From Flavobacteriales bacterium (GTDB lineage: Bacteria; Bacteroidota; Bacteroidia; Flavobacteriales_E; Vicingaceae), in NCBI GenBank assembly GCA_026196775.1, contig JAPHUD010000031.1:4291-68290 (forward strand): 64,000 bases of DNA. Reading direction: 5' to 3'. Every line of letters begins with the position of its first letter. Position 1 is the stretch's first letter. The translations under genes and the position numbers were made by a program. A model generated the notes under the pieces. That model was given only the letters and a program-made list of their open reading frames with translations, was not told where the DNA came from and did not search any database. Of this stretch, positions 3,496-38,399 are shown piece after piece.

Positions 3496-4404
3496 ATGTT
3501 TGAAAAATATAAATATCATTTTTGGCTGCACATAGTGGTGCTTATTTTCGGGTTAACCGGAATTTTAGGTAAATTGATTTCTGCCAACTCGTATTTATTG
3601 GTTTGGTATAGGGTTTTAATTGGTGTGGCAGCTATTGCTATTTATTTTTTAATAAGTAAACATTCTTTTAAAATCAATAAAAAAATATTGAAACAAACTT
3701 TTATGGTAGGATGTTTAATTGCCATACATTGGGTAGCTTTTTTTGAGGCGATAAAACAATCTACTGTTTCTATAGCATTGGTTTGTTTATCGAGCAGTAC
3801 TTTATTTACCGCATTGATTGAACCGCTTTATTTTAAAAGAAAAATTAAAGGGTACGAGTTGTTTTTGGGCTTGCTAATTATTGTGGGATTAGTATTGATT
3901 TTCAATTTTGAATTTAACTATTTAACAGGGATTATACTGGGTATTGTAGCAGCAGTATTTAGCTCTTGGTTTACGGTAATTAATGGTGTTTTAGTGAAAG
4001 AAACTAACTCCAAAACACTTTCTTTTTATGAATTACTAGGGGCATTAGTCATTTTATCGAGCTACTTAATTTTTATGAATTTAGGCAATATGGAGGCTTT
4101 TCTTATTCCTGTTTCAGATATCAAATGGTTATTAATTTTAGGAATAATTTGTACTGCTTTTGCTTTTATTATGTCGGTAGAAGTAATGAAAAAAATTTCT
4201 CCGTTTACGGTAGTAATTTCTATTAATTTAGAACCTATTTATTCTATTATTATAGCCGTTTTGTTGTGGCCCGAAAGTGAAATAATGTCAACAGGTTTTT
4301 ATGTAGGGATGGCTATTGTGTTATCGGCCATCTTTTTAAATGCTTTTTTTAAATTTAGAGATGACAAAAAAGCTAAAAGTGTTATTGGGAAAGTAATTGA
4401 ATAA
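3496..4404 (+). CDS. DMT/EamA-family transporter
   Basis: 302 aa with about 10 predicted TM helices arranged as two similar halves, typical of EamA-type permeases. Confidence 0.7.
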   Translation: MFEKYKYHFWLHIVVLIFGLTGILGKLISANSYLLVWYRVLIGVAAIAIYFLISKHSFKINKKILKQTFMVGCLIAIHWVAFFEAIKQSTVSIALVCLSSSTLFTALIEPLYFKRKIKGYELFLGLLIIVGLVLIFNFEFNYLTGIILGIVAAVFSSWFTVINGVLVKETNSKTLSFYELLGALVILSSYLIFMNLGNMEAFLIPVSDIKWLLILGIICTAFAFIMSVEVMKKISPFTVVISINLEPIYSIIIAVLLWPESEIMSTGFYVGMAIVLSAIFLNAFFKFRDDKKAKSVIGKVIE

Positions 4405-5134
4405 ACTCTGCTTTTTTTCTTCGGGATACCTCAAGCTTAGAACCATCACTCATTATAACATAGCCACCATCTCCTCTAACATATTTTTTTACATGGAGTA
4501 AATTAATGTAATAAGAACGATGAATTCTGTAAAATTGTTCATTAAGCAACATTTCTTCATACTCGCCAATTTGTTTTGAAGTAACAAAATGTTTGTCCTG
4601 ACCAACCACATGGACATCAGTATAACTTCCTTCAGAATGAAACCTGATAATGTCTTTTATTTTAATAAAATTCAATCCTTCTCCATCATGGATAACAATT
4701 TTTTGTTCTTGTCCGCTATCACCGGAAGATAAATTATTGAGTAGTGTTTTTAGTTTGTTATTGGTTAATTCTTGGTTTCTAATTTTTGATTTAAATCGGT
4801 TTATGGCAGCTTCTAGCTCATTTGCATCAATGGGTTTTAATAAATAATCTAACGCACTATATTTAATGGCTTTTATAGCATAATGATCATAAGCAGTAGT
4901 AAAAATCACATCAAAATTGATATTTTCTAATTTTTCTAATAAATCAAAACCATTTTCTCCTGGCATTTCAATATCTAAAAACAACAAATCGGGTTGATGT
5001 TCTTCAATAGCGGTAATAGCCTCTTTTGCATTGGCAGCTTGAGCTTTAATTTCTATATCGAAAAACTCTTTTAAGATGGTGGCCAAATGTTCTCTTCCAC
5101 CTTTCTCATCATCTACTATAATTGCTTTATACAT
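4382..5134 (-). CDS. LytTR-family two-component response regulator
   Basis: REC domain (MYKAIIVDDE..., LLFLDIEMPGENGFDLL, LDYLLKP) followed by a C-terminal LytTR DNA-binding domain (FYRIHRSYYINLLHV). Confidence 0.9.
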   Translation of the reverse strand: MYKAIIVDDEKGGREHLATILKEFFDIEIKAQAANAKEAITAIEEHQPDLLFLDIEMPGENGFDLLEKLENINFDVIFTTAYDHYAIKAIKYSALDYLLKPIDANELEAAINRFKSKIRNQELTNNKLKTLLNNLSSGDSGQEQKIVIHDGEGLNFIKIKDIIRFHSEGSYTDVHVVGQDKHFVTSKQIGEYEEMLLNEQFYRIHRSYYINLLHVKKYVRGDGGYVIMSDGSKLEVSRRKKAEFIQLLSQ

Positions 5135-5145
5135 AATACATTATT

Positions 5146-7314
5146 TTAAATTGGTACATATAGTTCTACCCGTGTTCCTGCAGGTTGGTTGTTGATTTTA
5201 AGGTCGTTTATTTTTACCGAAAGCCGATTCCCATTAAGTGAGTTTAACAGCTCTACTCGTTCTTTGGTAATATTCATCCCAAAAGAAGGAGAAGTAGTGT
5301 TTTGCTTAAGTTTAATAGCGTTTTCACGTCCAATTCCGTTGTCTTCCACCACGCATTTTAATAAATGTTCATTTTCCAGTAAAAACTGTATTCTTATTAT
5401 TCCATTTCCCTCTTTATGCGATATTCCGTGCCAAATGGCATTTTCAACGTAAGGCTGTATAAGCATTGACGGTATTTGTTCGTATTGTGTATCTATGGTT
5501 TCATCTACTAAAATCTCATATGAAAATTTGTTATTTAATCGTAACTGTTCTAACTCTAAGTATAAGGTAAGTGTTTCTATTTCATCTTTTAAAGAGATTC
5601 GCTGACGTTTAGTATTGGCTAAGGTGGCTCGCATTAGTTTAGCAAATTTACTCAGGTAAATAGAGGCATCTTTACTTTCGTTTTTAGAAATAAAATTTTG
5701 GATAGAATTAAGGGTGTTAAAAATAAAATGTGGATTCATTTGCGAACGAAGAGCTTGTAATTCTGATGCTAATGCTCTTTGTTTTTGTTCTTCAATTTGT
5801 TTGTTTTTTAATTGATTTTGCTTTTGGATTAAAAAGTAAATTAAGAACCCTATAATAATTACACCAAAAACAAGCGTTAATAAAAACCATGCTGACATGT
5901 AAAATGGAGGTTGAATGGTAAATGAAATAACTGAAGGTACGGTACTCCAAATTCCTGAATCGTTCATGGCAAAAACTTTAAAAGTATAGCTGCCGGGAGC
6001 TAACGAGGTATAATAGATAGAGGTATTTACGGTATAAATCCATTCTTTATCAAATCCTTCTAAAATGTATTTATATTGAATTCCGGATGGACTATTGCTT
6101 ATTCCGCTAATATTAAATTCAATAGCGTTGTTTTCATGACTCAATTCATAATGACTTAATGTGGTGGTGTCTTTACCGTTAATTTTCACACTGTTTATAA
6201 AAACTGATGGAGGCAAAGAATCTTGTCTAACTCTATCTGTTCTAATGGTTTTTGAATTAATTGGCTTTTCTGTTTGTTGATCAACAGGTAAATTTTTTAA
6301 AATAAACTTGCTTTGTACTTTTTCGTTTTCAATTTCTGTAGATGAAAAGATAGCGGGGGAACTATAGGTTATAGTGGAATTAACATCAATATGCTCAAAC
6401 TCATTTTCTAGTTTAAAAACACCATTCCCTGAAGTACCAAACCATAAGTTGCCTTTAGTATCTTCAGCCACAGAAATAACGGTTTGATTTCCTAAATATC
6501 GGGTAATATTGGCTTCTTTTAAACTTCCATCAGCATAAGAAATGATACCGCCACTATTTAGTGCAAACCAAATTTTGCCTTGTGAATCTTGAAAAATAAA
6601 TTCCACATTTTTTTCCACAAAAATTCTATTCAAGAAAGTAGTATTGTTAAACCTTATCACTTCGTGTTGTTTAGAGAACAAGTAGGTTTTATCTTGTAGT
6701 TGAACAACATTTGTTCTGGAGTTTCCTGCTGCTTCTGCTAACGGAATATTAAAGCTATTGGAATTTGTATTTACAAAAAGTTCGTTTTTAGAAGTGTTTT
6801 GGTTGTTTCCGGAAATTAATTTGCCGTTAAACTTTACAACAAAATAGGGATAAGGATTTAATTTTAGGTTGGAAATGGTTTCTGTTTTTAAATCAATTTG
6901 AATTAAAGCACTACCAACTATAGTACTTATATAAAAAGCAGAATCGGCAAAAATTACAGAGTTAATGATTTTGTTTTCTACTCGTTTTTGAACCAATTTA
7001 TTAAATGGAAAAGGAACGAGTTGATTGTTTTTTATTTCAAAAATTTCTCCATAAATACTCCATACATATAGGTTTTTAGGGGTTTTTATAAATTTAGAAA
7101 GGTTTTCTTCAGTAATAATTTTAGTTAAGTTGTTGTTTTTTATTTCAAAAATACCTTCGCTGCTAATAAATAGCATTTTATTTTTATGTTCAATAATATC
7201 GTTAAATTGCAAGTAAGGAGAAGCGGAAGACTTGTAATTACTAAAAGAAGGATTTTGAGCGAATAATACTTCACTAAAAATAACTAGTTGTATGATGATA
7301 ATGAATCTTAACAA
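5146..7314 (-). CDS. Sensor histidine kinase, LytS/YehU type, with a large extracytoplasmic propeller/Y_Y_Y-like sensor
   Basis: Signal peptide, then propeller-like repeats (GKIWFALNSGGIISY, GNLWFGTSGNGVF), an Ig-like Y_Y_Y-type segment, one TM (WFLLTLVFGVIIIGFLIYFLI), the His_kinase motif NPHFIFNTLNSIQNFI, and an HATPase (ENAIWHG, DNGIG). It sits 11 nt upstream of the response regulator. Confidence 0.85.
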   Translation of the reverse strand: MLRFIIIIQLVIFSEVLFAQNPSFSNYKSSASPYLQFNDIIEHKNKMLFISSEGIFEIKNNNLTKIITEENLSKFIKTPKNLYVWSIYGEIFEIKNNQLVPFPFNKLVQKRVENKIINSVIFADSAFYISTIVGSALIQIDLKTETISNLKLNPYPYFVVKFNGKLISGNNQNTSKNELFVNTNSNSFNIPLAEAAGNSRTNVVQLQDKTYLFSKQHEVIRFNNTTFLNRIFVEKNVEFIFQDSQGKIWFALNSGGIISYADGSLKEANITRYLGNQTVISVAEDTKGNLWFGTSGNGVFKLENEFEHIDVNSTITYSSPAIFSSTEIENEKVQSKFILKNLPVDQQTEKPINSKTIRTDRVRQDSLPPSVFINSVKINGKDTTTLSHYELSHENNAIEFNISGISNSPSGIQYKYILEGFDKEWIYTVNTSIYYTSLAPGSYTFKVFAMNDSGIWSTVPSVISFTIQPPFYMSAWFLLTLVFGVIIIGFLIYFLIQKQNQLKNKQIEEQKQRALASELQALRSQMNPHFIFNTLNSIQNFISKNESKDASIYLSKFAKLMRATLANTKRQRISLKDEIETLTLYLELEQLRLNNKFSYEILVDETIDTQYEQIPSMLIQPYVENAIWHGISHKEGNGIIRIQFLLENEHLLKCVVEDNGIGRENAIKLKQNTTSPSFGMNITKERVELLNSLNGNRLSVKINDLKINNQPAGTRVELYVPI

Positions 7315-7423
7315 ACCTCCAAAATTTTTGATGAAAAGTAGTCATTTTTTATTTTTAAATCAACAACCAATATGAGTTTGGTCGTTTTTAATATACAAAC
7401 GGTAGGGTTTATTACATAAGTGG

Positions 7424-8716
7424 TTATTTGTTAAATAAGAAAACCAAATCCAATACTGGTGAAGTATGTGTATAGGTAAATAACACATTTTTAGTTGAAA
7501 AATCATAGGCTGTAATAGTGTTTCCTTCAACTATATAAAGTTCGTTAGAAAAAGTATCATATTTTATTTTAGTAGCATTAATCCCGTTTAAATAAGGCAA
7601 AGTAGAGTGATTATTAGCATTAACTAGCACTAAATTTCCGTTTTGAGCAATCATAAAAACACCACCACCTAATTCTTCACATGAAGTAATTGTTCCTGGA
7701 GATAAGTTGAACAAAGTTGTTTTTGTGTTGTTTGAAGCATCATAAACAAATATTTTACCATCATTAGTAGTGTTGTCATTGGCAAAAAATAGAGCATTAT
7801 TAGGAGCATAAGCATATAAGCCAACTATATCTTCTGTTAGTTGTAACTGATGAACAAATCCTCCAGAGTTGGTCCAATAGGTTGTAATATATCTAGTATT
7901 GTTTCCTATGGCTTTTTCTTCAGAAATGAAAACATTATCATGTACTAAACCATTTTCGGGATAATAACTTGTTTGAACATTTGAAAAATAAGTAGGACTT
8001 CCATTAGAGTTGTAGGCTCTGATTTCACCGTTTCTTATACCTAGGTACAATTCTTTATCGTGAAAAAACATATTGGTATAATAAGGAATCGATGAGTTTG
8101 GAAAATCTAATCCCCAAGATTGGCTCCCTGTAGCGACATCATAAGCCAAAATTTTTGCGTTATACTCTCCAACAGTTATTAATTGTTGACCATAAGAATT
8201 GGCAGCTCCACCTAAAAAGTCTGTGGGTACAGTTTTGAATAAATTGGCACTACTCCCATTTAACTGATAAATAGAGGTTGTATTTCCTGAGTTGTCATAA
8301 AAAAAGACACCTGTTCTAGTTTTTGGGATTTCACCATAAGAAATATTAATGTATTTAGTTGCGGTATTGATTCCATCACTTGCTTTGATACTAAAATAAT
8401 ATTGTCCAGAAGGCATGTATAAATCATCGAAAAAATAAGGGTCGTTAAATGAAAAAGAATTATCGTTTGGAGAATGAGAAATAGTAGGTAAAACAGGAAT
8501 GTCGTTACTGTTTCTTAAGGAAATAGAAATACTTTTAATGGTATTGTTATCACTAACTGATCCAGTTATAAAAATAGTATCATTACCATTTATTTGCTGG
8601 TTATTATAAGGGGTAGAAATAGAAATTCTCGGCACTTCTTCGTCTGTAATTTTTTCGCATGAACTCAAAAAAATCAAGAAAGTCAACAATATTAATATGC
8701 TTATTCTATTCCTCAT
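7424..8716 (-). CDS. Lipoprotein with an N-terminal Ig-like domain and a beta-propeller-like body
   Basis: Start moved to ATG 8716 (MRNRISILILLTFLIFLSSC, lipobox). The track start at 8773 would read through the terminator hairpin at 8755-8779. The body shows repetitive propeller-like segments. Confidence 0.65.
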   Translation of the reverse strand: MRNRISILILLTFLIFLSSCEKITDEEVPRISISTPYNNQQINGNDTIFITGSVSDNNTIKSISISLRNSNDIPVLPTISHSPNDNSFSFNDPYFFDDLYMPSGQYYFSIKASDGINTATKYINISYGEIPKTRTGVFFYDNSGNTTSIYQLNGSSANLFKTVPTDFLGGAANSYGQQLITVGEYNAKILAYDVATGSQSWGLDFPNSSIPYYTNMFFHDKELYLGIRNGEIRAYNSNGSPTYFSNVQTSYYPENGLVHDNVFISEEKAIGNNTRYITTYWTNSGGFVHQLQLTEDIVGLYAYAPNNALFFANDNTTNDGKIFVYDASNNTKTTLFNLSPGTITSCEELGGGVFMIAQNGNLVLVNANNHSTLPYLNGINATKIKYDTFSNELYIVEGNTITAYDFSTKNVLFTYTHTSPVLDLVFLFNK

Positions 8717-8750: not shown

Positions 8751-8781
8751 AAAAAAGCAAGTGTTCTTAACACTTGCTTTT
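8751..8781 (-). terminator. Rho-independent terminator closing the exported-protein operon
   Basis: aagcaagtgtt (8755-8765), loop ctt, aacacttgctt (8769-8779). On the minus strand it is followed by a T-run (A-run 8751-8756 on the + strand). It lies 27 nt after the stop at 8806. Confidence 0.7.
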
Positions 8782-8805
8782 CAGTTTGTTGGTGGAAGTA
8801 AAAAA

Positions 8806-9450
8806 TTATTTATTACCGCCTATTCTTATCCCTATTTTTAATGCTAGTCTTAAATCCACAGGAATTTCATTTCCGATATAAGGAGTGTAATCACTTTCAT
8901 TAAATTGTTCATCAGATAAATCTTCAGCAAATGAATCACTATATTTAACATTGTTAACTATAAACTTTCCGATACCAAAGGTTGCTTCCAAAAATAAAGC
9001 TCCTTTAGATTGCCATTTGTAGCCTGCTAAAGCACCTAACCCAAAAGCTGAAGTAGAAACATCTGTTTTACCAATAATTATATTATTAGCATCATTTGGA
9101 TCTTGCACAGCATAAGCATTATCTTTTGCATTGGAACTTCTATATTTCCCATAAACACCAATATAAACTCCATCGTTACCTTTATTAGGAGTTGCATAAA
9201 ATTTATACTCAGGTACGATGTTCATTTCTGAATATTTTTCTACATCTCCATAAAGTGATTTGCCATCTGCAAACATATTGTCTGTTGCAAAATTAATGTT
9301 TACTCCTATGGAGTTGCTATTATTCATTAGGTAATCGTAGCCAATTCCATATCTAGAAAAAGCAAAACCTAAAACATCAGTGCTTATGTCATGCTGTGCT
9401 TTAAGTCCTAACCCCGAGAACAGTAAAGCTGCTAATATTAATTTTTTCAT
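8806..9450 (-). CDS. Small outer-membrane beta-barrel-like protein (operon gene 7)
   Basis: Signal peptide MKKLILAALLFSGLGLKAQ, followed by alternating hydrophobic beta-strand patterns rich in G, Y and N. Family not recognised. Confidence 0.55.
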   Translation of the reverse strand: MKKLILAALLFSGLGLKAQHDISTDVLGFAFSRYGIGYDYLMNNSNSIGVNINFATDNMFADGKSLYGDVEKYSEMNIVPEYKFYATPNKGNDGVYIGVYGKYRSSNAKDNAYAVQDPNDANNIIIGKTDVSTSAFGLGALAGYKWQSKGALFLEATFGIGKFIVNNVKYSDSFAEDLSDEQFNESDYTPYIGNEIPVDLRLALKIGIRIGGNK

Positions 9451-9478
9451 CTGTGTATAGTTTAGTTAATTATTTAAA

Positions 9479-10441
9479 TTACCAAAGAGATCTGTAGATA
9501 ACGGTATCTGGTTGACCATTTCCATAAGCTACTCCTATATCTCTAACTGCTTGAATCATTTCGCTTTTTTGTTCTTGGTCTTTTAGGATATATTTCCATT
9601 CTCTTGCATCAAGTTCTTTAACTCTAGCTTCAATTTTACTCATTAAAGCTTTTACTTGAGTAAAACATGATGTTTGAGGCTCAATAGTAGCTAAAATTGC
9701 TCCCGCTTTTTCAGCTGCTTCAATATCCTGAGCTGCATTCCAAATAGTTTGAGCTTCTTGTAGCTTTAATTTACAATCTCTTTCAATTTTCTTTAAATAA
9801 ATTGGTTCAACAGCTTTCATACTTTTCTCAAAGCATTCATCACAAGCATCTGGCACACTACTTAATAAGAAAATAGCTTCTTCAAATTGATTTTGAGCTT
9901 CTAGGTTTTTAGCTTTTTTAATAATTAAATCACAATTGTTGTTGTAATAATCAATTATTTTAGCTTTACCTTCTTTAATAAATGCTTGTACTTCTGGATG
10001 GGCAGGTTTAATCATTTTAATTCCTGCCATATATGCTTTGTTTTCATTTACACCTACTCCTTTAACTGTAATGGTTTTACTAGCAAAAGCAGTTCCTTCA
10101 AAACCATCACCAATATAAAGTGTAACATCTAACGTATAAGCATGCATAGTTGGAGGCCCTGGAAGTATATCTTTTGAAGCAACATTGATGTTGGCAGAAA
10201 TAACAAACCTAGAATTAAAAGGGCTGGCAGAAATCCCATTTTTGGTAATTACCTCCTTTAGTTTATTGATAAGCATATTTTTTGCACTACTTGGCATTCC
10301 TTCAATTTGTTCAGGAACCCAAGCGGTAAGCATTAGTCTGTTCATTTCCGAATCTGATGCTTTTGATTGAGCAAAAGTGTTGTTACTGATGAATAACATG
10401 GTTATTGACACCAATAAAAGGTTTAATTTTAATTTTTTCAT
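9479..10441 (-). CDS. Exported hypothetical protein with a Cys-rich helical-repeat C-terminal half (operon gene 6)
   Basis: Signal peptide MKKLKLNLLLVSITMLFISNNTFAQ. The C-terminal half is helical and TPR-like with six Cys (NNNCDLI, PDACDECF, RDCKL, TSCF). Confidence 0.6.
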   Translation of the reverse strand: MKKLKLNLLLVSITMLFISNNTFAQSKASDSEMNRLMLTAWVPEQIEGMPSSAKNMLINKLKEVITKNGISASPFNSRFVISANINVASKDILPGPPTMHAYTLDVTLYIGDGFEGTAFASKTITVKGVGVNENKAYMAGIKMIKPAHPEVQAFIKEGKAKIIDYYNNNCDLIIKKAKNLEAQNQFEEAIFLLSSVPDACDECFEKSMKAVEPIYLKKIERDCKLKLQEAQTIWNAAQDIEAAEKAGAILATIEPQTSCFTQVKALMSKIEARVKELDAREWKYILKDQEQKSEMIQAVRDIGVAYGNGQPDTVIYRSLW

Positions 10442-10464
10442 AGTAAATTGGTTTTATAATGTTA

Positions 10465-11409
10465 TTATTTTCCTCCTAGTATAATGGTTGCTCTACCTAA
10501 GCCTTTAACAACTACTTTGTTTGGAACACCGAGGTCAGCTAAATACTTGCTTAATTCTCTAGCAAAACCTCTTGTGTCTAAAGCTCTTCCTTTATCGTTG
10601 TATAACGGCATTCTAACCTGTTCAAAAGTCATCATGTTTTCAGTTACATCAAGCACGCTAAAACGGTTTTTAACAGTATTAGCAGCAATCCAATCCTCAA
10701 TAACATAAGATAATTCATCTCCATTAACTTCAGATTCTAAGTCAAATTCTGAATCGCTCCATTTTTGGATTTTAACAATAACTTCTCTTCCATTTTCAAA
10801 CATATCTTCAAAATGAGCTTGAAGAGAAGCGTTAAAATTATCAATATGAGCAGTTACAGCTTCTTGTAATAATACTGGAGTTTCTGCTGTGAATGATGGA
10901 GCTCCTGTACCTTGAGCACCTGCAATTTGTTTATCAGTATAAGCATCTAGCCCTTGTAGAATAAATGTCACTGATTTTTTAGGTCCAGTAGTATTTACTG
11001 TCCATGTTATTTGCATAATAATATCTGCTTTAGCAACTTGTTTAAGTTTATCCATTGGTGTTTCATCAATATCGCTTCCAGAATCTTTTGAAGTCATCAT
11101 GTTATCTTCAGCAGCGTTTGATTCTAATGTTTTTAGTACAGATTCTAAGTTTTTCAAGGGGAAGCCTCTTTCGTTCATCATGTTGTTGATAGCACTAATC
11201 ACTAAAAGTACATCGCTATCTTCTTGTAATGCTTTTTTATAATCAGGGATTTTAATTTTTGTTCCTTGATTATCAAACTCCATGAAATAACCATTTTTAA
11301 TACACCAGTTATCACTTGGTACTACCATAATGGTTGGTTTTTTTGCTTGTCCGAATGTAGTTGAAATTGTAGCTAATATAATACTACATACTAATAATAT
11401 TTTTTTCAT
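10465..11409 (-). CDS. Exported hypothetical protein, alpha/beta-looking (operon gene 5)
   Basis: Signal peptide MKKILLVCSIILATISTTFGQ. The mature N-terminus is AKKPTIMVVPSDNW... No catalytic motif recognised. Confidence 0.6.
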   Translation of the reverse strand: MKKILLVCSIILATISTTFGQAKKPTIMVVPSDNWCIKNGYFMEFDNQGTKIKIPDYKKALQEDSDVLLVISAINNMMNERGFPLKNLESVLKTLESNAAEDNMMTSKDSGSDIDETPMDKLKQVAKADIIMQITWTVNTTGPKKSVTFILQGLDAYTDKQIAGAQGTGAPSFTAETPVLLQEAVTAHIDNFNASLQAHFEDMFENGREVIVKIQKWSDSEFDLESEVNGDELSYVIEDWIAANTVKNRFSVLDVTENMMTFEQVRMPLYNDKGRALDTRGFARELSKYLADLGVPNKVVVKGLGRATIILGGK

Positions 11410-11440
11410 AATGTTATATCTTGTTTTTAAGGGTTATAGA

Positions 11441-11947
11441 TTATTTAATTATTTTATCAGCGATCATTCTTTCTTTTAGCTTAGCTCTTTGAACTCTAAT
11501 GATAACACCATAGGTTACTTGATCTGCATACTTTTTTCTGCCCTGAACTACAGAAAAATGCATATCAGAACCGTCTTCTCCTGTAATAAATTCTAAGTAT
11601 GCTCCTTGATCGGCAAAGAAGGCATTAAAATAGTCTTCATACTTTTCTTGAGCATTTACTTCAAAAATTACTGGTTTAGGGTTACAATCTTGTCTGCCAT
11701 TTGTAATACCTTTAAAAAGTACATCTCTAACACCGTTTTTCTTCGCTTGTTCAACAGCATCTTCTCTGTTTCTACCCATGCCCCAAGCTTTTACTGTTTG
11801 AGAACCATCCATTTCAACTCCCATGCACTCTGTTTCGTATTCATAATTTCCAGACATACTTCTTTGTGGGTCTCCACAAGAGTCCATAATAAATGTAAAA
11901 GCAACAATGCTTAGTACGCTTCCTAATATAAGTTTTAGTTTTTTCAT
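11441..11947 (-). CDS. Small lipoprotein, paralog of the 11979-12500 product (operon gene 4)
   Basis: Lipobox ...AFTFIMDSC. Shares the pattern Y-E-x-EC-x-G...VK-x-W...A-x-x-QAKKN-x-V...F-x-G...C with its neighbour. Confidence 0.6.
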   Translation of the reverse strand: MKKLKLILGSVLSIVAFTFIMDSCGDPQRSMSGNYEYETECMGVEMDGSQTVKAWGMGRNREDAVEQAKKNGVRDVLFKGITNGRQDCNPKPVIFEVNAQEKYEDYFNAFFADQGAYLEFITGEDGSDMHFSVVQGRKKYADQVTYGVIIRVQRAKLKERMIADKIIK

Positions 11948-11978
11948 GTTTTTATTAATTAAATTATTTAATGTTTAA

Positions 11979-12500
11979 TTAGAATCCTGAAGATAATCCT
12001 TTGATTATTCCAGCCGCTTCTAAATCTTTTCTTAAAAGATCAACCATCACAGTTACGACTACGCCAATTTTGTATTCTTTACCAACTTTCATAGTTGTTG
12101 GTGTTCCATCTCCAGAAGTAGAAACAAACTTCATATATTTACCATTGTCTTTAAAGAAGTCTTCAAAAAATTCTTCTTTTTGTTGTTCTAAAGCAGGATC
12201 ATTAGTTAGTGGTCTTTGGTTAGTACAACCTTGAGCCCCACCTGCATATCCTTGAAAAATAATTCCATGAACTGCATTTTTCTTTGCCTGATTAATAGCA
12301 ATAGTTGCTTTTTTAGAGTAAGACCAAACTTTAATTACTTTGGTTCCAGGCTTTCCAATACCAACACATTCAATTTCGTATCTCCAGTTTTCAGTATCTT
12401 TGTTTGCTTTTTTCTTTTTGTTTATTTGAGCATTTGAAGTAAATGCAAACAATAACATTATTGAAGTTAATAAACTTGCTTTTTTTATTACGTTTTTCAT
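11979..12500 (-). CDS. Small exported protein, paralog of the 11441-11947 product (operon gene 3)
   Basis: Signal peptide MKNVIKKASLLTSIMLLFAFTSNAQ. WRYEIECVGIGKPGTKVIKVWSY...INQAKKNAVHGIIFQG...GC aligns by eye with the neighbouring gene. Confidence 0.6.
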   Translation of the reverse strand: MKNVIKKASLLTSIMLLFAFTSNAQINKKKKANKDTENWRYEIECVGIGKPGTKVIKVWSYSKKATIAINQAKKNAVHGIIFQGYAGGAQGCTNQRPLTNDPALEQQKEEFFEDFFKDNGKYMKFVSTSGDGTPTTMKVGKEYKIGVVVTVMVDLLRKDLEAAGIIKGLSSGF

Positions 12501-12526
12501 AGTTTAACTAGTTTAATTTATAATTA

Positions 12527-13882
12527 TTAATTGATTTGTCTTATTAACATACCAGGATAATACCCTTTACCTCCTTTAAAGTAAGTAAATTCAATGTCAT
12601 TTTCAATCTCTATTGGATTTCCTTCTTCATCTAGTGGTTCTTCGCCTATATTATATTTATTATTCCAAATATTTTTTTTGTCCACTTTTATAATTCCTTT
12701 TCTTTTGTAAGTAACTCGCCCCTCTGCATCAAATACTTGTTCTAAAACTTCATATTTATCTCCTCCTTCTAAACCTTCTTTCAAGCCAATTTTAGCTCCT
12801 AAAGGTTCAATACTAACTAATGGCGTTTTTGTTCTAAAAGGTTCAAATTTTCTTTGGAGTTTATTATAAACAGAGTTGATAGATTTTAATGTAGCGTTTT
12901 CAATTATCATTTCTTCACTTTCGGCATTTGAACCCAAGCCTGATATTAAAGCTCTTGTTTTTTCATACCCTAATAGTTTTAATTGAAATAGATCTGAGCT
13001 ATCAAACACAGTTTTTTTAGTTGAGTCTATAGATGTAGAGTCCATCCACATATCCATATAAAAAGTAGCTTCTATAGAGTCATTCCATTGCATTTGATAA
13101 AGATAAGCTGTTGTCCATATTGAATATCCTTGTCTAGCTTTTTCATAGGCATTTTTTGCTATTTCTAACGCTGTTTCCTGTAATGCTCCAGGGAGTTTTC
13201 CGGCAGCATCTTTAGCTATATCATAAGCAATTTTTGCTGTTTCTTCATTACTTACAAATTTTGAATAATTTACAACTACAAAAGTATTATTTATTAACTC
13301 AATACCTGCATCTTTTAACATATCTAATCCTCTTTCTGTACTCAGTGCCATGTCGGCTGCCTGAGCAGAAGCATCATAGGCTCCTCTCTCTTGAATTAAC
13401 GACATATCAAAAGTACCTTCTTCACTTCTATTAAACCATTTAGCAATCATTTTGTTGGCTAATTTAGTATCTTTAAAATATTGATCTATAGCAGCACTAA
13501 AATCTTTGTCTTTAGCTTTTTTACCTTCCTTAACTTCGTTAATTTTGTCTTGATAATCTTTTATATTGAAAGACTTAGCGCCAATGGTATGGTTGTTATA
13601 CTTATCAGGGAATTCTGCGTTTTTAAAAGTGTTAAGTATTAAATCTTTTTTAGGAAGATTGTCATCTTCAATAATCATTGTATGTAAGGAACCTCTTCTA
13701 TATTTTACAATTTCTGTGTGTTTATCTGTTTTTTGGATTTTAGTTACTTCGTCTTTTTCTTTTTTCACTTCACTTTTTTCTACGTCTTCTGTTTCTGCTG
13801 TTTGTTCTTGAGCATTTAGTAAGGTTGTTTGAAGAAAAAAAAATAGTGTTAAAATTAATCCTGAAGAAATATATTTTTTCAT
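12527..13882 (-). CDS. Exported hypothetical protein, 451 aa (operon gene 2)
   Basis: Signal peptide MKKYISSGLILTLFFFLQTTLLNAQ, then an acidic/basic low-complexity linker (EQTAETEDVEKSEVKKEKDEVTK). No family recognised. Confidence 0.6.
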   Translation of the reverse strand: MKKYISSGLILTLFFFLQTTLLNAQEQTAETEDVEKSEVKKEKDEVTKIQKTDKHTEIVKYRRGSLHTMIIEDDNLPKKDLILNTFKNAEFPDKYNNHTIGAKSFNIKDYQDKINEVKEGKKAKDKDFSAAIDQYFKDTKLANKMIAKWFNRSEEGTFDMSLIQERGAYDASAQAADMALSTERGLDMLKDAGIELINNTFVVVNYSKFVSNEETAKIAYDIAKDAAGKLPGALQETALEIAKNAYEKARQGYSIWTTAYLYQMQWNDSIEATFYMDMWMDSTSIDSTKKTVFDSSDLFQLKLLGYEKTRALISGLGSNAESEEMIIENATLKSINSVYNKLQRKFEPFRTKTPLVSIEPLGAKIGLKEGLEGGDKYEVLEQVFDAEGRVTYKRKGIIKVDKKNIWNNKYNIGEEPLDEEGNPIEIENDIEFTYFKGGKGYYPGMLIRQIN

Positions 13883-13906
13883 TTATGTATTAAAATTGTA
13901 ATAAAT

Positions 13907-13942
13907 AAAAAGAGAATTAATTAGCTAATTAATTCTCTTTTT
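13907..13942 (-). terminator. Perfect 17-bp palindromic hairpin between operon genes 1 and 2 (candidate attenuator or partial terminator)
   Basis: aaaaagagaattaatta (13907-13923), gc, taattaattctcttttt (13926-13942). A and T runs flank both sides. It sits in the only long (70 nt) gap of the operon, and I see no -7 box between it and gene 2. Confidence 0.5.
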
Positions 13943-13952
13943 ATTTCTAAAG

Positions 13953-14408
13953 TTATTTAGATTCTTGATTTTTAATTTGCTCTAATTGCCCTGGAATTGC
14001 TTTTTGAGTCTCATTAAGAGCTTTATTAGCAGCATTCACAGCTTTTACAGCTTTTATTGAATCTGTTTTAGGAGTAATAGACTTTGCTTCGGTTATAACA
14101 TCTGAAGATTTTCCCAATAATTGAGCAGCTTCTTTTGACTGCGCTTCTAAATCAGATTTAACACTTCCCAAATCATCTATATTGTTTGCTGGGTCAGACA
14201 ATGTTTTAGTAACTTCTTGATTTTTGAAGTACAAATTGAAAGCAGAATTGACATAATCATCTGTTGCAGCGTGACCAACTGCATCTGGTTTTTCTAATGT
14301 TTTAGTTTCTTTTTCTTTTTTTTCTTTCTTTTCTTTTTGAGCATAAACTTCAGTTGAAACTCCCGTTAGAAATAACGCAATAAATAAAACCCTTGTAATT
14401 TTTTTCAT
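13953..14408 (-). CDS. Small exported Lys/Glu-rich helical protein (operon gene 1)
   Basis: Start moved to ATG 14408 (MKKITRVLFIALFLTGVSTEVYAQ, then KEKKEKKEKETK). The track start at 14453 would overlap the -7 box at 14443-14450. Confidence 0.55.
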   Translation of the reverse strand: MKKITRVLFIALFLTGVSTEVYAQKEKKEKKEKETKTLEKPDAVGHAATDDYVNSAFNLYFKNQEVTKTLSDPANNIDDLGSVKSDLEAQSKEAAQLLGKSSDVITEAKSITPKTDSIKAVKAVNAANKALNETQKAIPGQLEQIKNQESK

Positions 14409-14442
14409 GTTTTTGTTGTTTATAATTAATTTTTTAACGTTC

Positions 14443-14450
14443 CAAATGTA
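14443..14450 (-). promoter_or_regulatory. Bacteroidota sigma-A -7 box (TAcaTTTG) for the exported-protein operon
   Basis: The + strand caaatgta is the reverse complement of TACATTTG, matching TAnnTTTG. It lies 34 nt upstream of ATG 14408. Confidence 0.45.
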
Positions 14451-14559
14451 CAAATAAATATTAATATCCCTAATTAATAAGTCGTTATGTTATTTTAAAA
14501 ACATGAGCAGCATTGCAAAGACTATACCACTAATTTTAAGAAAAATTAAGAAACAAATT

Positions 14560-32386: not shown

Positions 32387-32709
32387 TTTTTATCATTATT
32401 ATTTGATAGTGCAAAGGAATTAGAACACTTTAAATGAGACGTTAATCGAATGTTACGATAGTGTTATTTTCTAATGATTTTTACTGTTGTTTTGTGTAAA
32501 AATGTCAATTTAAAATGATTTGATTCATTATTAGAAAAACACTAAAACCATTAAAAACAAGGGATGTATAATTTTTTTTGAATATTAATTAATTGTTAAG
32601 GCAGTTTATGTTTTTATTTGCCTTTATATAATGGGAGCTATTTTTTGATTAAAAGTGTGAAAAAATTGTACAGCTCATCATTTTTTATATCTATGCGGCT
32701 AAAGATTAG

Positions 32710-32717
32710 TATGTTTG
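32710..32717 (+). promoter_or_regulatory. -7 box TAtgTTTG for the WD40-caspase gene
   Basis: tatgtttg lies 29 nt upstream of ATG 32747. This supports the downstream start. Confidence 0.4.
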
Positions 32718-32746
32718 TATATAAAAATAGCTTCATTCTACTTTCC

Positions 32747-35062
32747 ATGAAAAAATTAATTGTCCTTTGTATTTTATGTACGCTTTTGCCTCAAGCTTTT
32801 TTGGCTCAAATCACATTAAACGAAAGCAAAGTAATAGAAAGCAATGGCTACATTATGGAGGCTCAGTATTCGCCTTTTCAAACCTACTTTGCCTACACTT
32901 CCGATAAAAACAAAGTATTTCTTTTTGATCAATTCCATAATTTACTTTACTCGCATGTTGGCGATACGCTTTACGATAGGTCTTCATGCAAAATAGCTTT
33001 CTCTCCCAACGAAAAATATTTGCTTATTGGTAGGTTTAATTCCATTGGCGACATTGCTGTTTATAATCTTATTTCTCAGAAAGTAGAACAGTTAATTACT
33101 GCCCACAGCGATAGGATTGTAACCATCAACTTTAATCATCAAGGCAATCGTTTTGTTTCTACCAGCATAGATAATTCGGCTAAAATATTTGAATTAAAAG
33201 ATGATAAATGGATAGAAATTCAAGAGATAAAAGGCGAAAAAAGAGTTTACGATGCTGTTTTTTCCTATAAAGATGAATTTTTAATGCTATGTGGCGAAGC
33301 AGCCAACATAAGCGTGTATCAACAAGATAATGAAGCTTACAAACTCTTGCAAACACTTCCTACTACACATTGGGGATTGAATTATTTAGATGTTCATCCT
33401 TACGAAAACACATTTATTGCTGGCACTTCTGACAAAATTTGGGAGTATCAACTCACGGGTAAAAACTTTACTTTGCAAGATTCCTTAATAGTAAAAATTG
33501 GCAGAATAAAAGATGTTAAATATTCCCCCGATGGAAAAAGTATAGCCGTAGCAAATGGTTCCATCATCGAAATGTATTTAAAACAAAAAAACAGTTGGAC
33601 AGAAGGTAAAAAATTTCCTAGACACAATGCGTATATCTTATCGTTAAACTACAGTTTAGATGGTAAAAAGTTAGTAAGTTGCGGAGAAGATAAAACAGCC
33701 ATTATTTGGGATGTTAAAGGCATTAGCGGTTCTAAGTTTTCTAAAATAGTGGCTTATTTGGGCAATAGCTTAACCTTTTCGCAAAAAAGCATACTTACAG
33801 AAGATTTTTCTAGAGAAATAATAAAAAGCTTGGATAAAAATTTAGCTGCACCCAAAGATGAGTTTGAGACCAGCAAAGAGTATTGGGAAAGATTGCTAAA
33901 AGCCCGCTCGGTTATTTTAGCAAAAATTCAGGAAAAACAAGAAGCTACTTTTGGTTTTTCAAAAGCATCAGCTGACTCACAAGCAAAATTAAAATTGAAG
34001 TTAAAAAAATACGATGCAGATAAAGAAATTTATCACATAGAATTTTGCAATACCGAAGCTACTGTTGCTATTCCCAGAGCAGAAGCCAAAGAACTGAAAA
34101 CTAATGCTAACAAGGCATTAATTGCTGTAAATAAAATCCAAAAGAAGGATGATATACATTTTGAATACAGTAATTTTAGGGTAATACACCCAAGCATAAA
34201 AAAAACTTACGAGGTTAGTTCATCGGAAAACCCATTCAATTTTGAACACCTAAAAAAACAAAAAGCTGCTGAAGGTACAACATCATCTATTATATTGCCT
34301 GCCGACCAAACTGCACAAAAAGACACTATAAAAAAGCAAACTAATTATGCTCTTTTAATTGCTATTGGAGAGTATGATGCTTTTGATAATTTAGTAAATC
34401 CTACTATTGATGTGGGAGAAATAGCCAAAGATTTATCGCAGGATTATGGTTATGTGGTAGAAGTGCTAAGCAATCCCAAGCTGGACGATATCCTTAAAAA
34501 ACTGAAAACCTACGCCATGATTCCTTATGGAGAAAACGACCAGTTGTTTATCTTTTTTGCCGGACATGGATATTACGATGATGTTTTTAAAGAAGGTTAT
34601 TTAATCGCCAAAGATTCTAAAGCAGATGATATTGCTCACACTTCATTTTTATCACACAGCAATTTACGAACAGTAGTAAATAATATTCCTTGCGAACATA
34701 TTTTTTTAAGCTTAGATGCTTGTTTTGGGGGAACTTTCGATCCGATAATTGCTTCTGCAAGTCGCTCTACAGGCATGTATAAAGATGTAGAAAAAGAAGA
34801 CTTTATCCAACGCAAAATGAAGTATAAAACCCGATTGTACTTAAGCTCTGGAGGAAAAGAATATGTGCCTGATGGTCGTCCGGGACAACACTCGCCTTTT
34901 ACCCGTAAATTTTTGGAAGCTTTGAGAAGTTACGGTGGTGAAGACGGTATTTTAACCGTAAACGAAATTCTATCTTACATAGAAAAAGTTGTTCCTCAAC
35001 CCCGATTTGGAGAGTTTGGCAACAACGAACCCGGCAGTGACTTTTTGTTTATTAAGAAGTAG
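32747..35062 (+). CDS. Exported WD40-repeat protein fused to a caspase-like (peptidase C14) domain
   Basis: Start moved to ATG 32747 (MKKLIVLCILCTLLPQAFLAQ). WD40-like blades (e.g. SCGEDKTAIIWDV). The C-terminal domain from 34343 has the dyad contexts FIFFAGHG (His 34565-34567) and LSLDACFGG (Cys 34721-34723). Confidence 0.8.
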   Translation: MKKLIVLCILCTLLPQAFLAQITLNESKVIESNGYIMEAQYSPFQTYFAYTSDKNKVFLFDQFHNLLYSHVGDTLYDRSSCKIAFSPNEKYLLIGRFNSIGDIAVYNLISQKVEQLITAHSDRIVTINFNHQGNRFVSTSIDNSAKIFELKDDKWIEIQEIKGEKRVYDAVFSYKDEFLMLCGEAANISVYQQDNEAYKLLQTLPTTHWGLNYLDVHPYENTFIAGTSDKIWEYQLTGKNFTLQDSLIVKIGRIKDVKYSPDGKSIAVANGSIIEMYLKQKNSWTEGKKFPRHNAYILSLNYSLDGKKLVSCGEDKTAIIWDVKGISGSKFSKIVAYLGNSLTFSQKSILTEDFSREIIKSLDKNLAAPKDEFETSKEYWERLLKARSVILAKIQEKQEATFGFSKASADSQAKLKLKLKKYDADKEIYHIEFCNTEATVAIPRAEAKELKTNANKALIAVNKIQKKDDIHFEYSNFRVIHPSIKKTYEVSSSENPFNFEHLKKQKAAEGTTSSIILPADQTAQKDTIKKQTNYALLIAIGEYDAFDNLVNPTIDVGEIAKDLSQDYGYVVEVLSNPKLDDILKKLKTYAMIPYGENDQLFIFFAGHGYYDDVFKEGYLIAKDSKADDIAHTSFLSHSNLRTVVNNIPCEHIFLSLDACFGGTFDPIIASASRSTGMYKDVEKEDFIQRKMKYKTRLYLSSGGKEYVPDGRPGQHSPFTRKFLEALRSYGGEDGILTVNEILSYIEKVVPQPRFGEFGNNEPGSDFLFIKK

Positions 35063-36685: not shown

Positions 36686-38383
36686 TTATTCAGTAGGTTT
36701 TATTTCAACATCAAAATCAATGTGCTGTTTTACAATTCTTTGTTTGGACTGAAAGTTCGGACTGAAAATACTGTTCTGACTTTGCATTCCTTCAAACGTA
36801 ATGCTTAAAATATCAGCCACACTATAAATAAAATCGTCTATCATATATTTTCTATCTGCAAAGCTTCTGTATTTTTCCAATTCGGACTTTTGATTGCTCC
36901 AAAATACAAAAGGAATTTCAAACATAGGATAACTACCTATGGCTTCACTATGTCCATTAAAATCAACAGTTTGATAAACATCTTCACCATGGTCGGACAA
37001 ATAAATCATTTGTTGTTTTTCATTTGGGGTAGCGTTCGCTTTTAACAACGAAATTATCTCACTAATTACAAAATCATTATATAAAACAGCATTATCATAT
37101 TGATTAATAGCATCAAAAGCTTGTTGTGTTCCAAATGGAGTTGAAGGAGTATCTTTAAACTGATTAAAATTTTCTGGATAACGATTTTTATATTGTGTAT
37201 GTGTTCCTAAAAGATGAACAAAAAGTACTTTTTTAGTATCTTTTGTCTTTAAGCTTTTTGCTACAATTGGTAGCACTCGCTCATCTAATGAACGCAATTC
37301 TTGTTCTCCACCTAAATTCGTAAAATAGGAATAGTCTGCTGCTTTTGCCACAATAGAAACCATAGTTTCATTTATCCCAACCGGAATTTGATTAGATATC
37401 CAATAGGTTTTGTAACCTGCTGTTTTTACTAATTGAATCAAACTGCCATATTCTTTGGCTTCAGGGTTGGCAGTAGTTGCAAAGGTAAGTACTTTTTCTA
37501 ATGAGGGAATAGTGTGCGTATGCGGACTGATAACATCGTTGAAAACTAACAATTCGTTTCTCAGTTTTGCCAGATTTGGTGTGGTATTTCTATAATAACC
37601 GTAAATTCCTAAATGATGCTTAGTAGTGGATTCACCAATAACAATAATAATTGTTTCTTTTAAATCATCTTCTTTTTTTACAACTGTTTTTAATTGCTTA
37701 CTTTTTTTTGATGCAGCAAAGAAATTTTTATATTTTTCAACTTCAATTTTATACCTTTCATATCCATTCAAAATTTGAAAAATAGCATGATATTTATGGT
37801 GATTAGCATTAAAATAAAGACTTGTTCCTATAACAAATAAAACTAAACCCAAAGCTATTTTTTTCCATACAGCATTTTGTGTTCTTACCCAAAGAGATTC
37901 TATAAATAAAACCAACTTACGGAAGTCATTAAAAACAGCTTTAAATGAACTTTTTAGTGTATATTGCTGAATCGCCTTATTAACTCCAATTAATATAAAA
38001 ACAGACGGTATTAACAATATTAGTAACCAAATAAAAATTTCTGTATTGAAATATTCTTTTAAATATTCGGAAGTTTCAGAAGAATTTGTTTCTATTAATA
38101 TAAAAGCAGTAGAAGGTGTAATTCGTTCCTTATAAATAGAAACATAAGCGACTTCAAAAAAAGTAATTACTAATGTGCTAAGATATATAAAACGCACATA
38201 AATAGAGCTTATTTTTTTATTGGAAATGAAATAAGCAACAAAATACAAAAGCAGGTGCAAAAAAATGATTCTTTCAGGTATAAAGGATTTTCCTGTTTTT
38301 TCTGAAACAACATAAGACAATACAAAAATTGGATATAGTAAAAATAAGTAGCTGTATTTAATTAAATGTCGATGGAAAGGCAT
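36686..38383 (-). CDS. Phosphoethanolamine transferase (sulfatase/alkaline-phosphatase superfamily, EptA-like)
   Basis: N-terminal multi-TM domain. The catalytic domain has IVIGESTTKHHLGIYGY, LLGTHTQY and YLSDHGE. Confidence 0.75.
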   Translation of the reverse strand: MPFHRHLIKYSYLFLLYPIFVLSYVVSEKTGKSFIPERIIFLHLLLYFVAYFISNKKISSIYVRFIYLSTLVITFFEVAYVSIYKERITPSTAFILIETNSSETSEYLKEYFNTEIFIWLLILLIPSVFILIGVNKAIQQYTLKSSFKAVFNDFRKLVLFIESLWVRTQNAVWKKIALGLVLFVIGTSLYFNANHHKYHAIFQILNGYERYKIEVEKYKNFFAASKKSKQLKTVVKKEDDLKETIIIVIGESTTKHHLGIYGYYRNTTPNLAKLRNELLVFNDVISPHTHTIPSLEKVLTFATTANPEAKEYGSLIQLVKTAGYKTYWISNQIPVGINETMVSIVAKAADYSYFTNLGGEQELRSLDERVLPIVAKSLKTKDTKKVLFVHLLGTHTQYKNRYPENFNQFKDTPSTPFGTQQAFDAINQYDNAVLYNDFVISEIISLLKANATPNEKQQMIYLSDHGEDVYQTVDFNGHSEAIGSYPMFEIPFVFWSNQKSELEKYRSFADRKYMIDDFIYSVADILSITFEGMQSQNSIFSPNFQSKQRIVKQHIDFDVEIKPTE

Positions 38384-38399
38384 TTATTACAATAATAAG

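Follow-up and report, generated by a model that had tools for sequence, protein, structure and literature searches.

A conserved cluster of exported Bacteroidota proteins is a candidate for an uncharacterized periplasmic assembly

The locus described here raises the question of whether a run of adjacent genes for exported proteins constitutes an undescribed envelope system and, if so, what its products might build. Within the window (the whole 64,000-nucleotide stretch of Flavobacteriales DNA that was analysed), seven co-directional open reading frames occupy the minus strand from 8806 to 14408. These are G1 (13953-14408; 151 aa from MKKITRV, Lys/Glu-rich and probably helical), G2 (12527-13882; 451 aa), G3 (11979-12500; 173 aa), G4 (11441-11947; 168 aa), G5 (10465-11409; 314 aa), G6 (9479-10441; 320 aa) and G7 (8806-9450; 214 aa; outer-membrane beta-barrel type). 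The gaps between them, in order from G1 to G7, are 70, 26, 31, 31, 23 and 28 nt, which agrees with the original prediction of spacings of 23-31 nt and a single one of 70 nt. Each product begins with a basic and then a hydrophobic stretch, after which come a small residue and Gln; the signals end in VYAQ, LNAQ, SNAQ, TFGQ, TFAQ and LKAQ, and G4 has a lipobox-like ...MDSC instead. Both the coordinates and the export signals were confirmed, and signal-peptide-like N-termini recur in 71-100% of orthologues in every family. We predict from these signals that the core products defined below are exported via Sec into the periplasm.

A Bacteroidota-type -7 motif, TAcaTTTG, can be read directly at 14443-14450 on the minus strand, about 35 nt upstream of the ATG of G1, where a box had been placed; it is a candidate promoter. 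Of 69 related loci, 23 have an exact TAnnTTTG no more than 150 nt upstream of the gene that opens the cluster, compared with 8.8 expected from shuffles. At the other end, as anticipated, the block is closed by a 14-bp hairpin with a T-run that resembles an intrinsic terminator (8752-8782, minus strand; -18.2 kcal/mol, z -3.9), and of 78 related loci, 67 (raw count) have a hairpin of -9 kcal/mol or lower no more than 120 nt past the final gene of the cluster. The hairpin foreseen in the 70-nt gap between G1 and G2 is also there: a perfect 20-bp stem followed by a U-rich tract (13903-13946, minus strand; -19.2 kcal/mol, z -7.3), which may act as an attenuator or terminator. Of the 10 loci that carry G1, 8 have a hairpin with a T-run at the equivalent position, and its stem differs in sequence between them. 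Because this terminator-like structure is kept in position between G1 and G2, a single seven-gene transcript is doubtful.

The conserved unit is smaller than the block. It comprises four or five genes (G2, G3, an optional G4, G5 and G6), whose order and strand are identical in all 80 related loci while the flanks vary, with median gaps between core genes of 16-28 nt. These loci cover at least four orders: Flavobacteriales, Bacteroidales (from the human gut as well), Chitinophagales and Cytophagales. G2 was counted in the loci that reach far enough upstream, and it was found in every one. G2, G3, G5 and G6 are core genes; G4 is semi-core and is missing from most Flavobacteriaceae loci. G1 and G7 are accessory genes confined to the Vicingaceae-like clade: G1 orthologues occur in 10 of the 80 loci, all Vicingaceae-like, and G7 in about 15, again Vicingaceae-like only, as well as in Vicingus serpentipes. 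Human-gut contigs carry the same core with different accessory genes, including, in gut Bacteroidales, a gene for a small beta-barrel (192 aa) unrelated to G7. In most loci the cluster contains no gene for an outer-membrane protein. Synteny of the core throughout the 80 loci shows that the block is not a chance run of reading frames. The proposed seven-gene system therefore stands in that its gene order is kept well beyond close relatives, across several orders, but it must be narrowed to G2-G6, since G1 and G7 are lineage-specific. A search of plasmid records gave no match to the cluster, and the only 'phage' record was an unverified faecal contig of 9 kb with no recognised phage-like gene. 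An anti-phage defence or phage-derived module was rejected on this lack of a plasmid match and of any significant match in PADLOC or PHROGs.

To what families do these proteins belong? The products of G1-G7 were searched against Pfam, NCBIfam, PADLOC and PHROGs, and profiles were compared with PDB sequences. G5 is DUF6175 (PF19672; E 4e-126; score 420 bits, cut-off 23; all 293 profile positions covered) and G7 is DUF3575 (PF12099; E 5e-9; score 36.3 bits, cut-off 21.1); both are uncharacterized Pfam families. G2, G3/G4 and G6 gave no genuine family match in Pfam or PDB sequences, and G1 gave none in Pfam or NCBIfam and no PDB relative. Thus, the view that no family can be recognised holds for G2, G3/G4 and G6 but not for G5 and G7, and none of the seven was placed in an already characterized family. 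No sequence relative with a solved structure was found for the cluster proteins, and profile-profile comparison of the four families revealed no relation to one another. As predicted, the four databases yielded no catalytic, T9SS-CTD, TonB, pilin or SusD signature in G1-G7. A gliding or T9SS component (Gld, Spr, Por) was rejected because G1-G7 had no corresponding NCBIfam or Pfam match and no Por_Secre_tail CTD. As a separate observation, other proteins encoded in the window do carry a Por_Secre_tail CTD. A literature search found no paper mentioning the cluster family or DUF6175, and the function of the conserved cluster appears to have been studied by nobody. Together with the reach of the gene order, this makes the cluster, as first suggested, a sound candidate for an uncharacterized system, the mechanism of which we infer below.

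At the level of fold, precedents exist for G2 and G5. The AlphaFold2 model of G2 (pLDDT 74, pTM 0.72) has a Lys/Glu linker at about residues 26-60 that is predicted to be disordered over some 35 residues (residues 1-60 have a pLDDT below 50), followed by alpha/beta domains and a C-terminal beta-barrel. Foldseek matched this model to FlgT (3w1e, E 2e-5; 8z5n_0, E 5e-5; 430 alignment columns), with a TM-score of only 0.18-0.24 and an rmsd of 14 A despite a probability of 1.0 for both. FlgT has a three-domain fold of two TolB-N-like domains and a beta-barrel, and FlgT-C is described as resembling the N-terminal barrel of F1-ATPase/FliI; G2 also gave weak local Foldseek matches to F1-ATPase/FliI chains. 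The modelled resemblance of G2 to FlgT, a flagellar H-ring protein, is a fold-level lead only. By sequence, FlgT was rejected for G2: the FlgT Pfam families do not match because no Pfam family does at E values up to 1, a chance PaaB match aside, and the G2-family profile did not find 3w1e or 8z5n among PDB sequences. The G2 family has 1273 representatives at 50% clustering, and other members carry LysM, PEGA, DUF2846 or META domains or UVR-motif repeats at their N-termini. The LysM, PEGA, DUF2846 and META fusions would fit an envelope or peptidoglycan-contacting role. A lipobox-like Cys is present in 2 of 74 G2 orthologues, so G2 is not a lipoprotein.

G5 is the most conserved core gene. Its product shows 62-72% identity across orders, which suggests many constrained contacts; mean column identity is 81%, and the residues Q21-A-K-K-P-T26 past the signal-peptide region are invariant. 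The G5 model (pLDDT 75) consists of two alpha/beta domains of the TolB-N/CsgG/PelC/GNA1162 type, and Foldseek matched it to GNA1162 (4hrv, E 2e-4), then to CsgG, FlgT, XCC0632 and PelC. In the PDB entries that were matched, CsgG, PelC and FlgT form oligomers or rings. In the model, G5 resembles GNA1162, CsgG, PelC and FlgT, again as a fold-level lead only. The global TM-scores are low, at 0.18-0.30 for the query and at most 0.6 for small targets, which places the fold similarities at the level of domains. The G5 signal is of the Sec type-I kind, with a lipobox in 1 of 80 orthologues.

G3 and G4 are paralogues, as had been noticed, with 28% identity in alignment. Cys46 and Cys92 of G3 covary, being jointly lost in loci L062, L066, L070 and L080, and nearly all of 83 G3 orthologues end in SGF or AGF. 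G4 is without the SGF tail; a lipobox-like Cys is present in 15 of 30 of its orthologues, and here G4 is predicted to be a lipoprotein (...MDSC). An LPP20/FlgP-like small lipoprotein was rejected for both, as a per-member Pfam scan of 34 G3/G4 sequences found no LPP20 and their profile found nothing in the PDB. The N-terminal half of G6 looks alpha/beta and the C-terminal half helical, judged from its sequence; the Cys-rich character claimed for the helical half was upheld, with C170, C203, C223 and C259 invariant. The final G6 residue is W, Y or F among the orthologues listed. Since the G3 Cys pair covaries and the four G6 Cys are invariant, disulfides in an oxidizing compartment seem probable.

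Based on these results, we propose that the core forms a hetero-oligomeric periplasmic scaffold or ring close to the outer membrane. We give this reading somewhat less than an even chance. It builds on observations (export signals, synteny, family membership or absence, fold resemblance), from which we infer the assembly, its ring shape, its outer-membrane location and any downstream role, such as envelope stabilization or a collar. The four core proteins, G2, G3 (often with G4), G5 and G6, would join one scaffold, probably a ring, beneath the outer membrane. Its body may be formed by the FlgT-like G2 and by G5 with its two TolB-N/CsgG/PelC-like domains, and the variable G2 N-terminus, here the Lys/Glu linker, may reach towards peptidoglycan or other partners. 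By analogy with FlgP in the Vibrio FlgT ring, G3 may dock by its C-terminal ...SGF tail. The LPHT ring of Vibrio contains 26 FlgT paired with 26 FlgP; the C-terminal tail of FlgP, ending at Phe143, sits in a groove of FlgT (preprint 10.64898/2025.12.04.692373). In some lineages the lipid anchor of G4 could fix the assembly to the outer membrane, and a small beta-barrel may do likewise (G7 here, the unrelated protein of about 190 aa in gut Bacteroidales). Because G2, G3, G5 and G6 are not lipoproteins and G4 has a lipobox in half of its orthologues, attachment to the outer membrane is insecure in many lineages. The moderate confidence of the models (pLDDT 74-75) also counts against the scaffold, as do the low global TM-scores, the lack of sequence-level relationships to FlgT, CsgG, PelC, LPP20 or FlgP and among the four families, and the absence of outer-membrane protein genes from most of the clusters.

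It is possible, but rather improbable, that the proteins instead form an outer-membrane conduit for the secretion or assembly of some polymer or protein, like curli CsgG/E/F or Pel PelC/PelB, for which G1 might be the Vicingaceae substrate. The CsgG- and PelC-like folds of G5, the recruitment of small beta-barrel genes in two lineages and the attenuator-like hairpin after G1, as behind some major-subunit genes, are all consistent with this. However, no substrate-like gene is conserved, given how few loci have G1, and no glycosyltransferase, polymerase or amyloid-repeat gene occupies any conserved position. The G5 model has no CsgG-type lipid anchor or obvious transmembrane hairpins, outer-membrane protein genes are absent from most loci, and the two barrel proteins (214 and 192 aa) are unrelated and seemingly too small for a polymer channel. 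Curli secretion proper was rejected (no CsgG Pfam match, a type-I signal on G5, no curli-like neighbours), as was Pel export (no pel-type neighbours such as PelB or a glycosyltransferase in any locus); the likeness to each is one of fold alone.

We consider it just as improbable that the cluster encodes periplasmic proteins that regulate cell-wall enzymes or serve them as adaptors, either LpoB-like or of the TolB/Pal type that links the outer membrane to peptidoglycan, and not a ring. In LpoB, a globular TolB-N-like domain is borne on a long disordered linker; G2 has a disordered linker and, like G5, TolB-N-like folds; LysM domains in some G2-family members point the same way. Yet LpoB-type activators are single lipoproteins, whereas here the genes come as a fixed four- or five-member set and G2 is not lipidated. 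Moreover, no PBP, hydrolase or Tol neighbour is conserved, and NCBIfam gives no LpoA, LpoB or TolB match. An accessory to lipid or LPS trafficking, comparable to PqiC/XCC0632 (DUF330) or LptE-type capping lipoproteins, is decidedly unlikely: G5 does match XCC0632/DUF330 in Foldseek (E 4e-3, prob 0.99), but more weakly than GNA1162 and CsgG and within the same broad fold class, and the cluster has no conserved MCE, ABC-transporter or Lpt neighbours. That the genes are functionally unrelated and merely adjacent is least probable of all and already disfavoured, for although no homology links the families and interaction of their products is our conjecture, order and strand persist across orders with short gaps and changing flanks.

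Returning to the scaffold, a more specific version would have the core build a new periplasmic ring in non-flagellated Bacteroidota, a counterpart of the H-ring (FlgT/FlgP) serving as a collar or bushing or as outer-membrane support. We hold this unlikely, a little more so than the conduit or the cell-wall adaptors. Bacteroidota are not known to have flagella, and no flagellar genes (L/P-ring, MotX/MotY association) were found in the annotated portions of the window or in the sequence flanking loci L081-L088. If true, the collar could surround another machine of the envelope, such as the rotary gliding/T9SS apparatus; alternatively, the ring could be a phylum-specific outer-membrane support structure.

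How does the cluster compare with known systems? G5 is a full-length member of DUF6175, a family without a described function, and G7 scores above the gathering threshold of DUF3575, a Bacteroidota outer-membrane beta-barrel family. No sequence link of the cluster proteins to FlgT, CsgG, PelC, LPP20 or FlgP was found. CsgG and PelC assemble into rings of 9 to 12 subunits that lie in the outer membrane or beneath it. With these two, GNA1162/DUF799 and XCC0632/DUF330, all exported envelope proteins, the G5 domains share a TolB-N-like fold, but members of that set are mostly lipoproteins, whereas G5 lacks a lipobox, has two such domains per chain and shows no sequence similarity to them. The Vibrio flagellar H-ring (FlgT, FlgP/FlgO; 3w1e, 8z5n) differs in that FlgT has no sequence similarity to G2 and a global TM-score of about 0.2, FlgP is a lipoprotein and G3 is not, and G5 and G6 have no H-ring counterpart. 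What the cluster and the H-ring seem to have in common is a multi-domain fold of modelled G2 that resembles FlgT, with a Foldseek probability of 1.0; a small partner, G3, encoded beside G2 and ending in a conserved Phe like the FlgT-binding tail of FlgP; and proteins that are periplasmic and, presumably in the case of the cluster, close to the outer membrane.

The seven minus-strand ORFs were found exactly where the original prediction had placed them. In transcription order they are G1 (13953-14408, 151 aa), G2 (12527-13882, 451 aa), G3 (11979-12500, 173 aa), G4 (11441-11947, 168 aa), G5 (10465-11409, 314 aa), G6 (9479-10441, 320 aa) and G7 (8806-9450, 214 aa), with intergenic spacings from G1 to G7 of 70, 26, 31, 31, 23 and 28 nt. 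The N-terminus of every product but that of G4 is a basic, hydrophobic signal sequence that closes with a small residue followed by Gln, the usual type-I cleavage context in Bacteroidota; G4 has a lipobox-like ...MDSC instead. Orthologues of all families retain signal-peptide-like N-termini. Because our crude signal-peptide heuristic flagged 26 of the 44 ORFs in the window, and is too permissive for an estimate of chance, we have used synteny as the main argument. By reading of their translations, the upstream neighbours of the block are lysA-like and aspartokinase-like genes, whose housekeeping roles are unrelated to it. Directly downstream of G7 (4382-8713, minus strand) are a lipoprotein (7424-8713) with matches to a Big_7 domain and a BamB-like beta-propeller, a Y_Y_Y/Reg_prop histidine kinase and a LytTR response regulator. 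These constitute an unrelated two-component module, and as the lipoprotein and the LytTR pair are common only to the closest relatives (loci L001-L003), we left them out of the cluster.

Elsewhere in the window, a second run of exported proteins (36686-45355, minus strand) holds a sulfatase, two Por_Secre_tail (T9SS sorting domain) proteins, a DUF5723 protein and a 533-aa lipoprotein-like ORF without a family. The CTD-bearing Por_Secre_tail proteins imply that this organism has a type IX secretion system. An 814-aa ORF (32618-35062, plus strand) combines a signal-peptide-like N-terminus, WD40 beta-propeller repeats and a C-terminal caspase (Peptidase_C14) domain.

The claim that none of the seven products belongs to a recognisable family holds for five of them. 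It fails for G5, which is a full-length DUF6175 protein (Pfam PF19672, E 4e-126), and for G7, which is a DUF3575 outer-membrane barrel (Pfam PF12099, 36 bits versus a cut-off of 21); both are members of named but uncharacterised DUFs. Pfam scans of all seven proteins gave these two families only, and NCBIfam, PADLOC and PHROGs scans of the same set gave nothing useful. Single-sequence and profile searches found no significant PDB sequence relatives of G1, G2, G3/G4, G5, G6 or G7, hhalign found no relation among the four core families, and no consistent Pfam match came from scanning the G3/G4 and G6 alignments member by member. HTH_CodY matches in the per-member scans were limited to a short C-terminal motif and were rejected, as were the eL14 matches to the G2 profile, which were compositional and located in its Lys-rich linker. 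A full-text search, with most subscription-journal papers outside its reach, returned nothing on DUF6175/PF19672, nor on proteins of Bacteroidota that resemble FlgT or CsgG, and literature searches for DUF3575, GNA1162 and a Flavobacterium periplasmic operon gave nothing relevant.

In a 90%-clustered protein collection, homologues of G5 number more than 7,600, the best 120 of which are 66-95% identical. When one genome per GTDB species was scanned with two G5 peptide motifs as query, a homologue was present in at least 565 species-level genomes, human-gut Bacteroidales among them. Across Bacteroidota orders G5 is 62-72% identical, which is unusually strong conservation for an uncharacterised exported protein. 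Synteny was checked in the 80 best loci and four gut contigs. The 80 loci (G5 identity 62-98%) represent Vicingaceae and numerous genera of Flavobacteriaceae, together with MAGs of Bacteroidales, Chitinophagales and Cytophagales and one further MAG that carries the label Chlorobiota. Throughout the block, a Vicingaceae MAG (L001, OZ260100.1) matches the window at 94-99% identity, so the window's source is closely related to it. By tblastn and iterated HMM searches, the order and strand of G2-G3-(G4)-G5-G6 are unchanged in every locus with enough sequence, and the median gaps between these core genes are 16-28 nt. Most Flavobacteriaceae lack G4, a paralogue of G3. Among the 80 loci, G1 (10 loci) and G7 (about 15) are confined to Vicingaceae-like genomes. 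All seven genes recur in Vicingus serpentipes, where other genes surround them; the genes flanking the cluster are otherwise lineage-specific, and no further conserved neighbour emerged when one was sought. Downstream Vut_1, RmuC and TonB-dependent receptors were rejected as parts of the module, being lineage-specific only. In one Flavobacteriales MAG (L073, 5614-7500), G2 and G3 are split into several short ORFs and G5 and G6 are intact, which may reflect decay into pseudogenes, or else frameshift and assembly errors.

A variant from the gut has the order WG-repeat protein, G2, G3, small barrel-like protein, G4, G5, G6, with a G5 that is 49% identical. It is carried by MT836698.1, a 9-kb record from a phage collection, and by three gut MAG contigs. 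Its barrel-like protein (189-192 aa, C-terminus ...YEF) has no homology to G7 and was rejected as a G7 homologue. Given the synteny, the lineage-limited G1 and G7, and this gut variant, the conserved unit is therefore a four- or five-gene core whose accessories differ between lineages; on two occasions it has acquired a small barrel of outer-membrane type. MT836698.1 is titled 'UNVERIFIED: Bacteriophage sp.', with human faeces as its source, and also encodes a 448-aa ORF that is by appearance a putative AAA-type ATPase. No phage-like genes were recognised among its ORFs, two of which were scanned, and it looks like a misfiled Bacteroidales contig. G5 was found on no plasmid, and a mobile-element origin of the cluster was rejected after plasmid and phage-collection searches.

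The sequence TAcaTTTG is present at 14443-14450. An exact TAnnTTTG occurs in the 150 nt that precede the first cluster gene in 23 of 69 loci versus 8.8 expected, 27-57 nt from the start codon in most of the 23. The block ends at a hairpin with a T-run (8752-8782, -18.2 kcal/mol, z -3.9); a stable hairpin follows the last cluster gene in 67 of 78 loci, a raw count without shuffle control. Between G1 and G2 is a hairpin with a perfect 20-bp stem (-19.2 kcal/mol, z -7.3). The position of this hairpin and T-run 3' of G1 (13903-13946) is kept in eight of 10 loci with differing stem sequences, equivalents being found in the gaps of L001, L002, L006, L007, L011, L016, L027 and L050. A constant position with a changing stem suggests that attenuation between G1 and G2 is under selection. 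Thus, G1 is probably either transcribed on its own or over-expressed as the first cistron, with partial read-through into the genes behind it, and the predicted single seven-gene transcript is putative and unproven.

The core proteins have several conserved features. The two cysteines of G3 are lost together in four lineages, a disulfide signature, and G6 has four invariant cysteines; both sets are in keeping with residence in the periplasm. In nearly all orthologues the last three residues of G3 are SGF or AGF, and the C-terminal residue of G6 is W, Y or F in the orthologues listed. G4 has no SGF-type tail and carries a lipobox in half of its orthologues. In G5, QAKKPT is invariant right behind the signal-peptide region. 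In G2, a variable, disordered Lys/Glu-rich stretch precedes an invariant Y-R-R-x-S-L-H motif (consensus KYRRSSLHT). The G2 family comprises 1273 representatives at 50% clustering, many of them lengthened at the N-terminus by segments that reach about 1,000 residues and include LysM, PEGA, DUF2846, META/DUF4377, UVR-motif repeats and MORN. A second, longer G2 paralogue adjoins the cluster in some genomes. Extensions and paralogues were sampled in P0254-P0329 and in five loci (L015 3744-5420, L060 5195-6781, L072 1097-2725, L078 3889-5490 and L035 10996-13890).

The model of G5 (pLDDT 75) has two alpha/beta domains. Its Foldseek matches in the PDB are GNA1162 (E 2e-4), CsgG, FlgT, XCC0632/DUF330, PelC and HpaA. 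This is the TolB-N-like class of folds, found in envelope proteins close to the outer membrane, several of which form rings. The model of G2 (pLDDT 74, pTM 0.72) matches FlgT over 430 columns with low global TM-scores (3w1e, E 2e-5; 8z5n_0, E 5e-5; prob 1.0). G2 also has weak local matches to F1-ATPase and FliI chains. As background, FlgT-C has been described as similar to the N-terminal barrel of F1-ATPase/FliI. Because the global TM-scores of the G2 and G5 matches are low (0.18-0.30), the modelled resemblance is at the level of domain and architecture, and no sequence-level relation to the matched families was found. G2 as a FlgT, and G5 as a CsgG or PelC, fail on both sequence and context. 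Thus, FlgT, CsgG and PelC are working analogies, not memberships.

A hetero-oligomeric periplasmic assembly is the reading we favour: the set of genes is fixed, the products bear export signals and disulfide signatures, and the modelled folds resemble those of ring-forming proteins. Tentatively, and with somewhat less than an even chance, the core may be an interacting, outer-membrane-proximal scaffold or ring. We propose that the core proteins would assemble as a hetero-oligomer in the periplasm near the outer membrane, and that anchoring may occur via the G4 lipid, recruited barrels (G7) or the aromatic C-terminus of G6. The variable N-terminus of G2, which has LysM in some members, may contact peptidoglycan. 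The block would then be an envelope assembly made from TolB-N/FlgT-type parts, a mechanism that we infer from moderate-confidence models.

An export conduit like CsgG/PelC, both of which are among the G5 matches, seems unlikely, as the core has no conserved substrate, synthase or pore gene. We are equally doubtful of a cell-wall adaptor like LpoB/Tol, since the set is multi-gene and comes without a conserved enzyme partner. Transporter genes are absent nearby, which makes a lipid-transport cap like PqiC/LptE improbable. Least probable of all is that the neighbours are functionally unrelated, a reading contradicted by the synteny.

If the core is indeed an outer-membrane-proximal ring or scaffold, a phylum-wide envelope structure would be added for Bacteroidota, one with a possible bearing on secretion, gliding or the stability of the outer membrane in bacteria that matter to medicine and the environment. 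A FlgT-like architecture would then also have a use beyond flagella. Tractable carriers of the cluster, such as Flavobacterium species, two of which (L060 and L078) are among the matches, allow the prediction to be tested directly. Conserved 'hypothetical' envelope operons are not rare; in favour of this one are its very strong phylum-wide conservation and a clean testable hypothesis.

In the LPHT ring of Vibrio, 26 FlgT are paired with 26 FlgP, and the C-terminal tail of FlgP, to Phe143, sits in a groove of FlgT (10.64898/2025.12.04.692373). G2 together with G3 and its ...SGF tail is an attractive parallel to this FlgT/FlgP pair, as an analogy rather than a tested homology.
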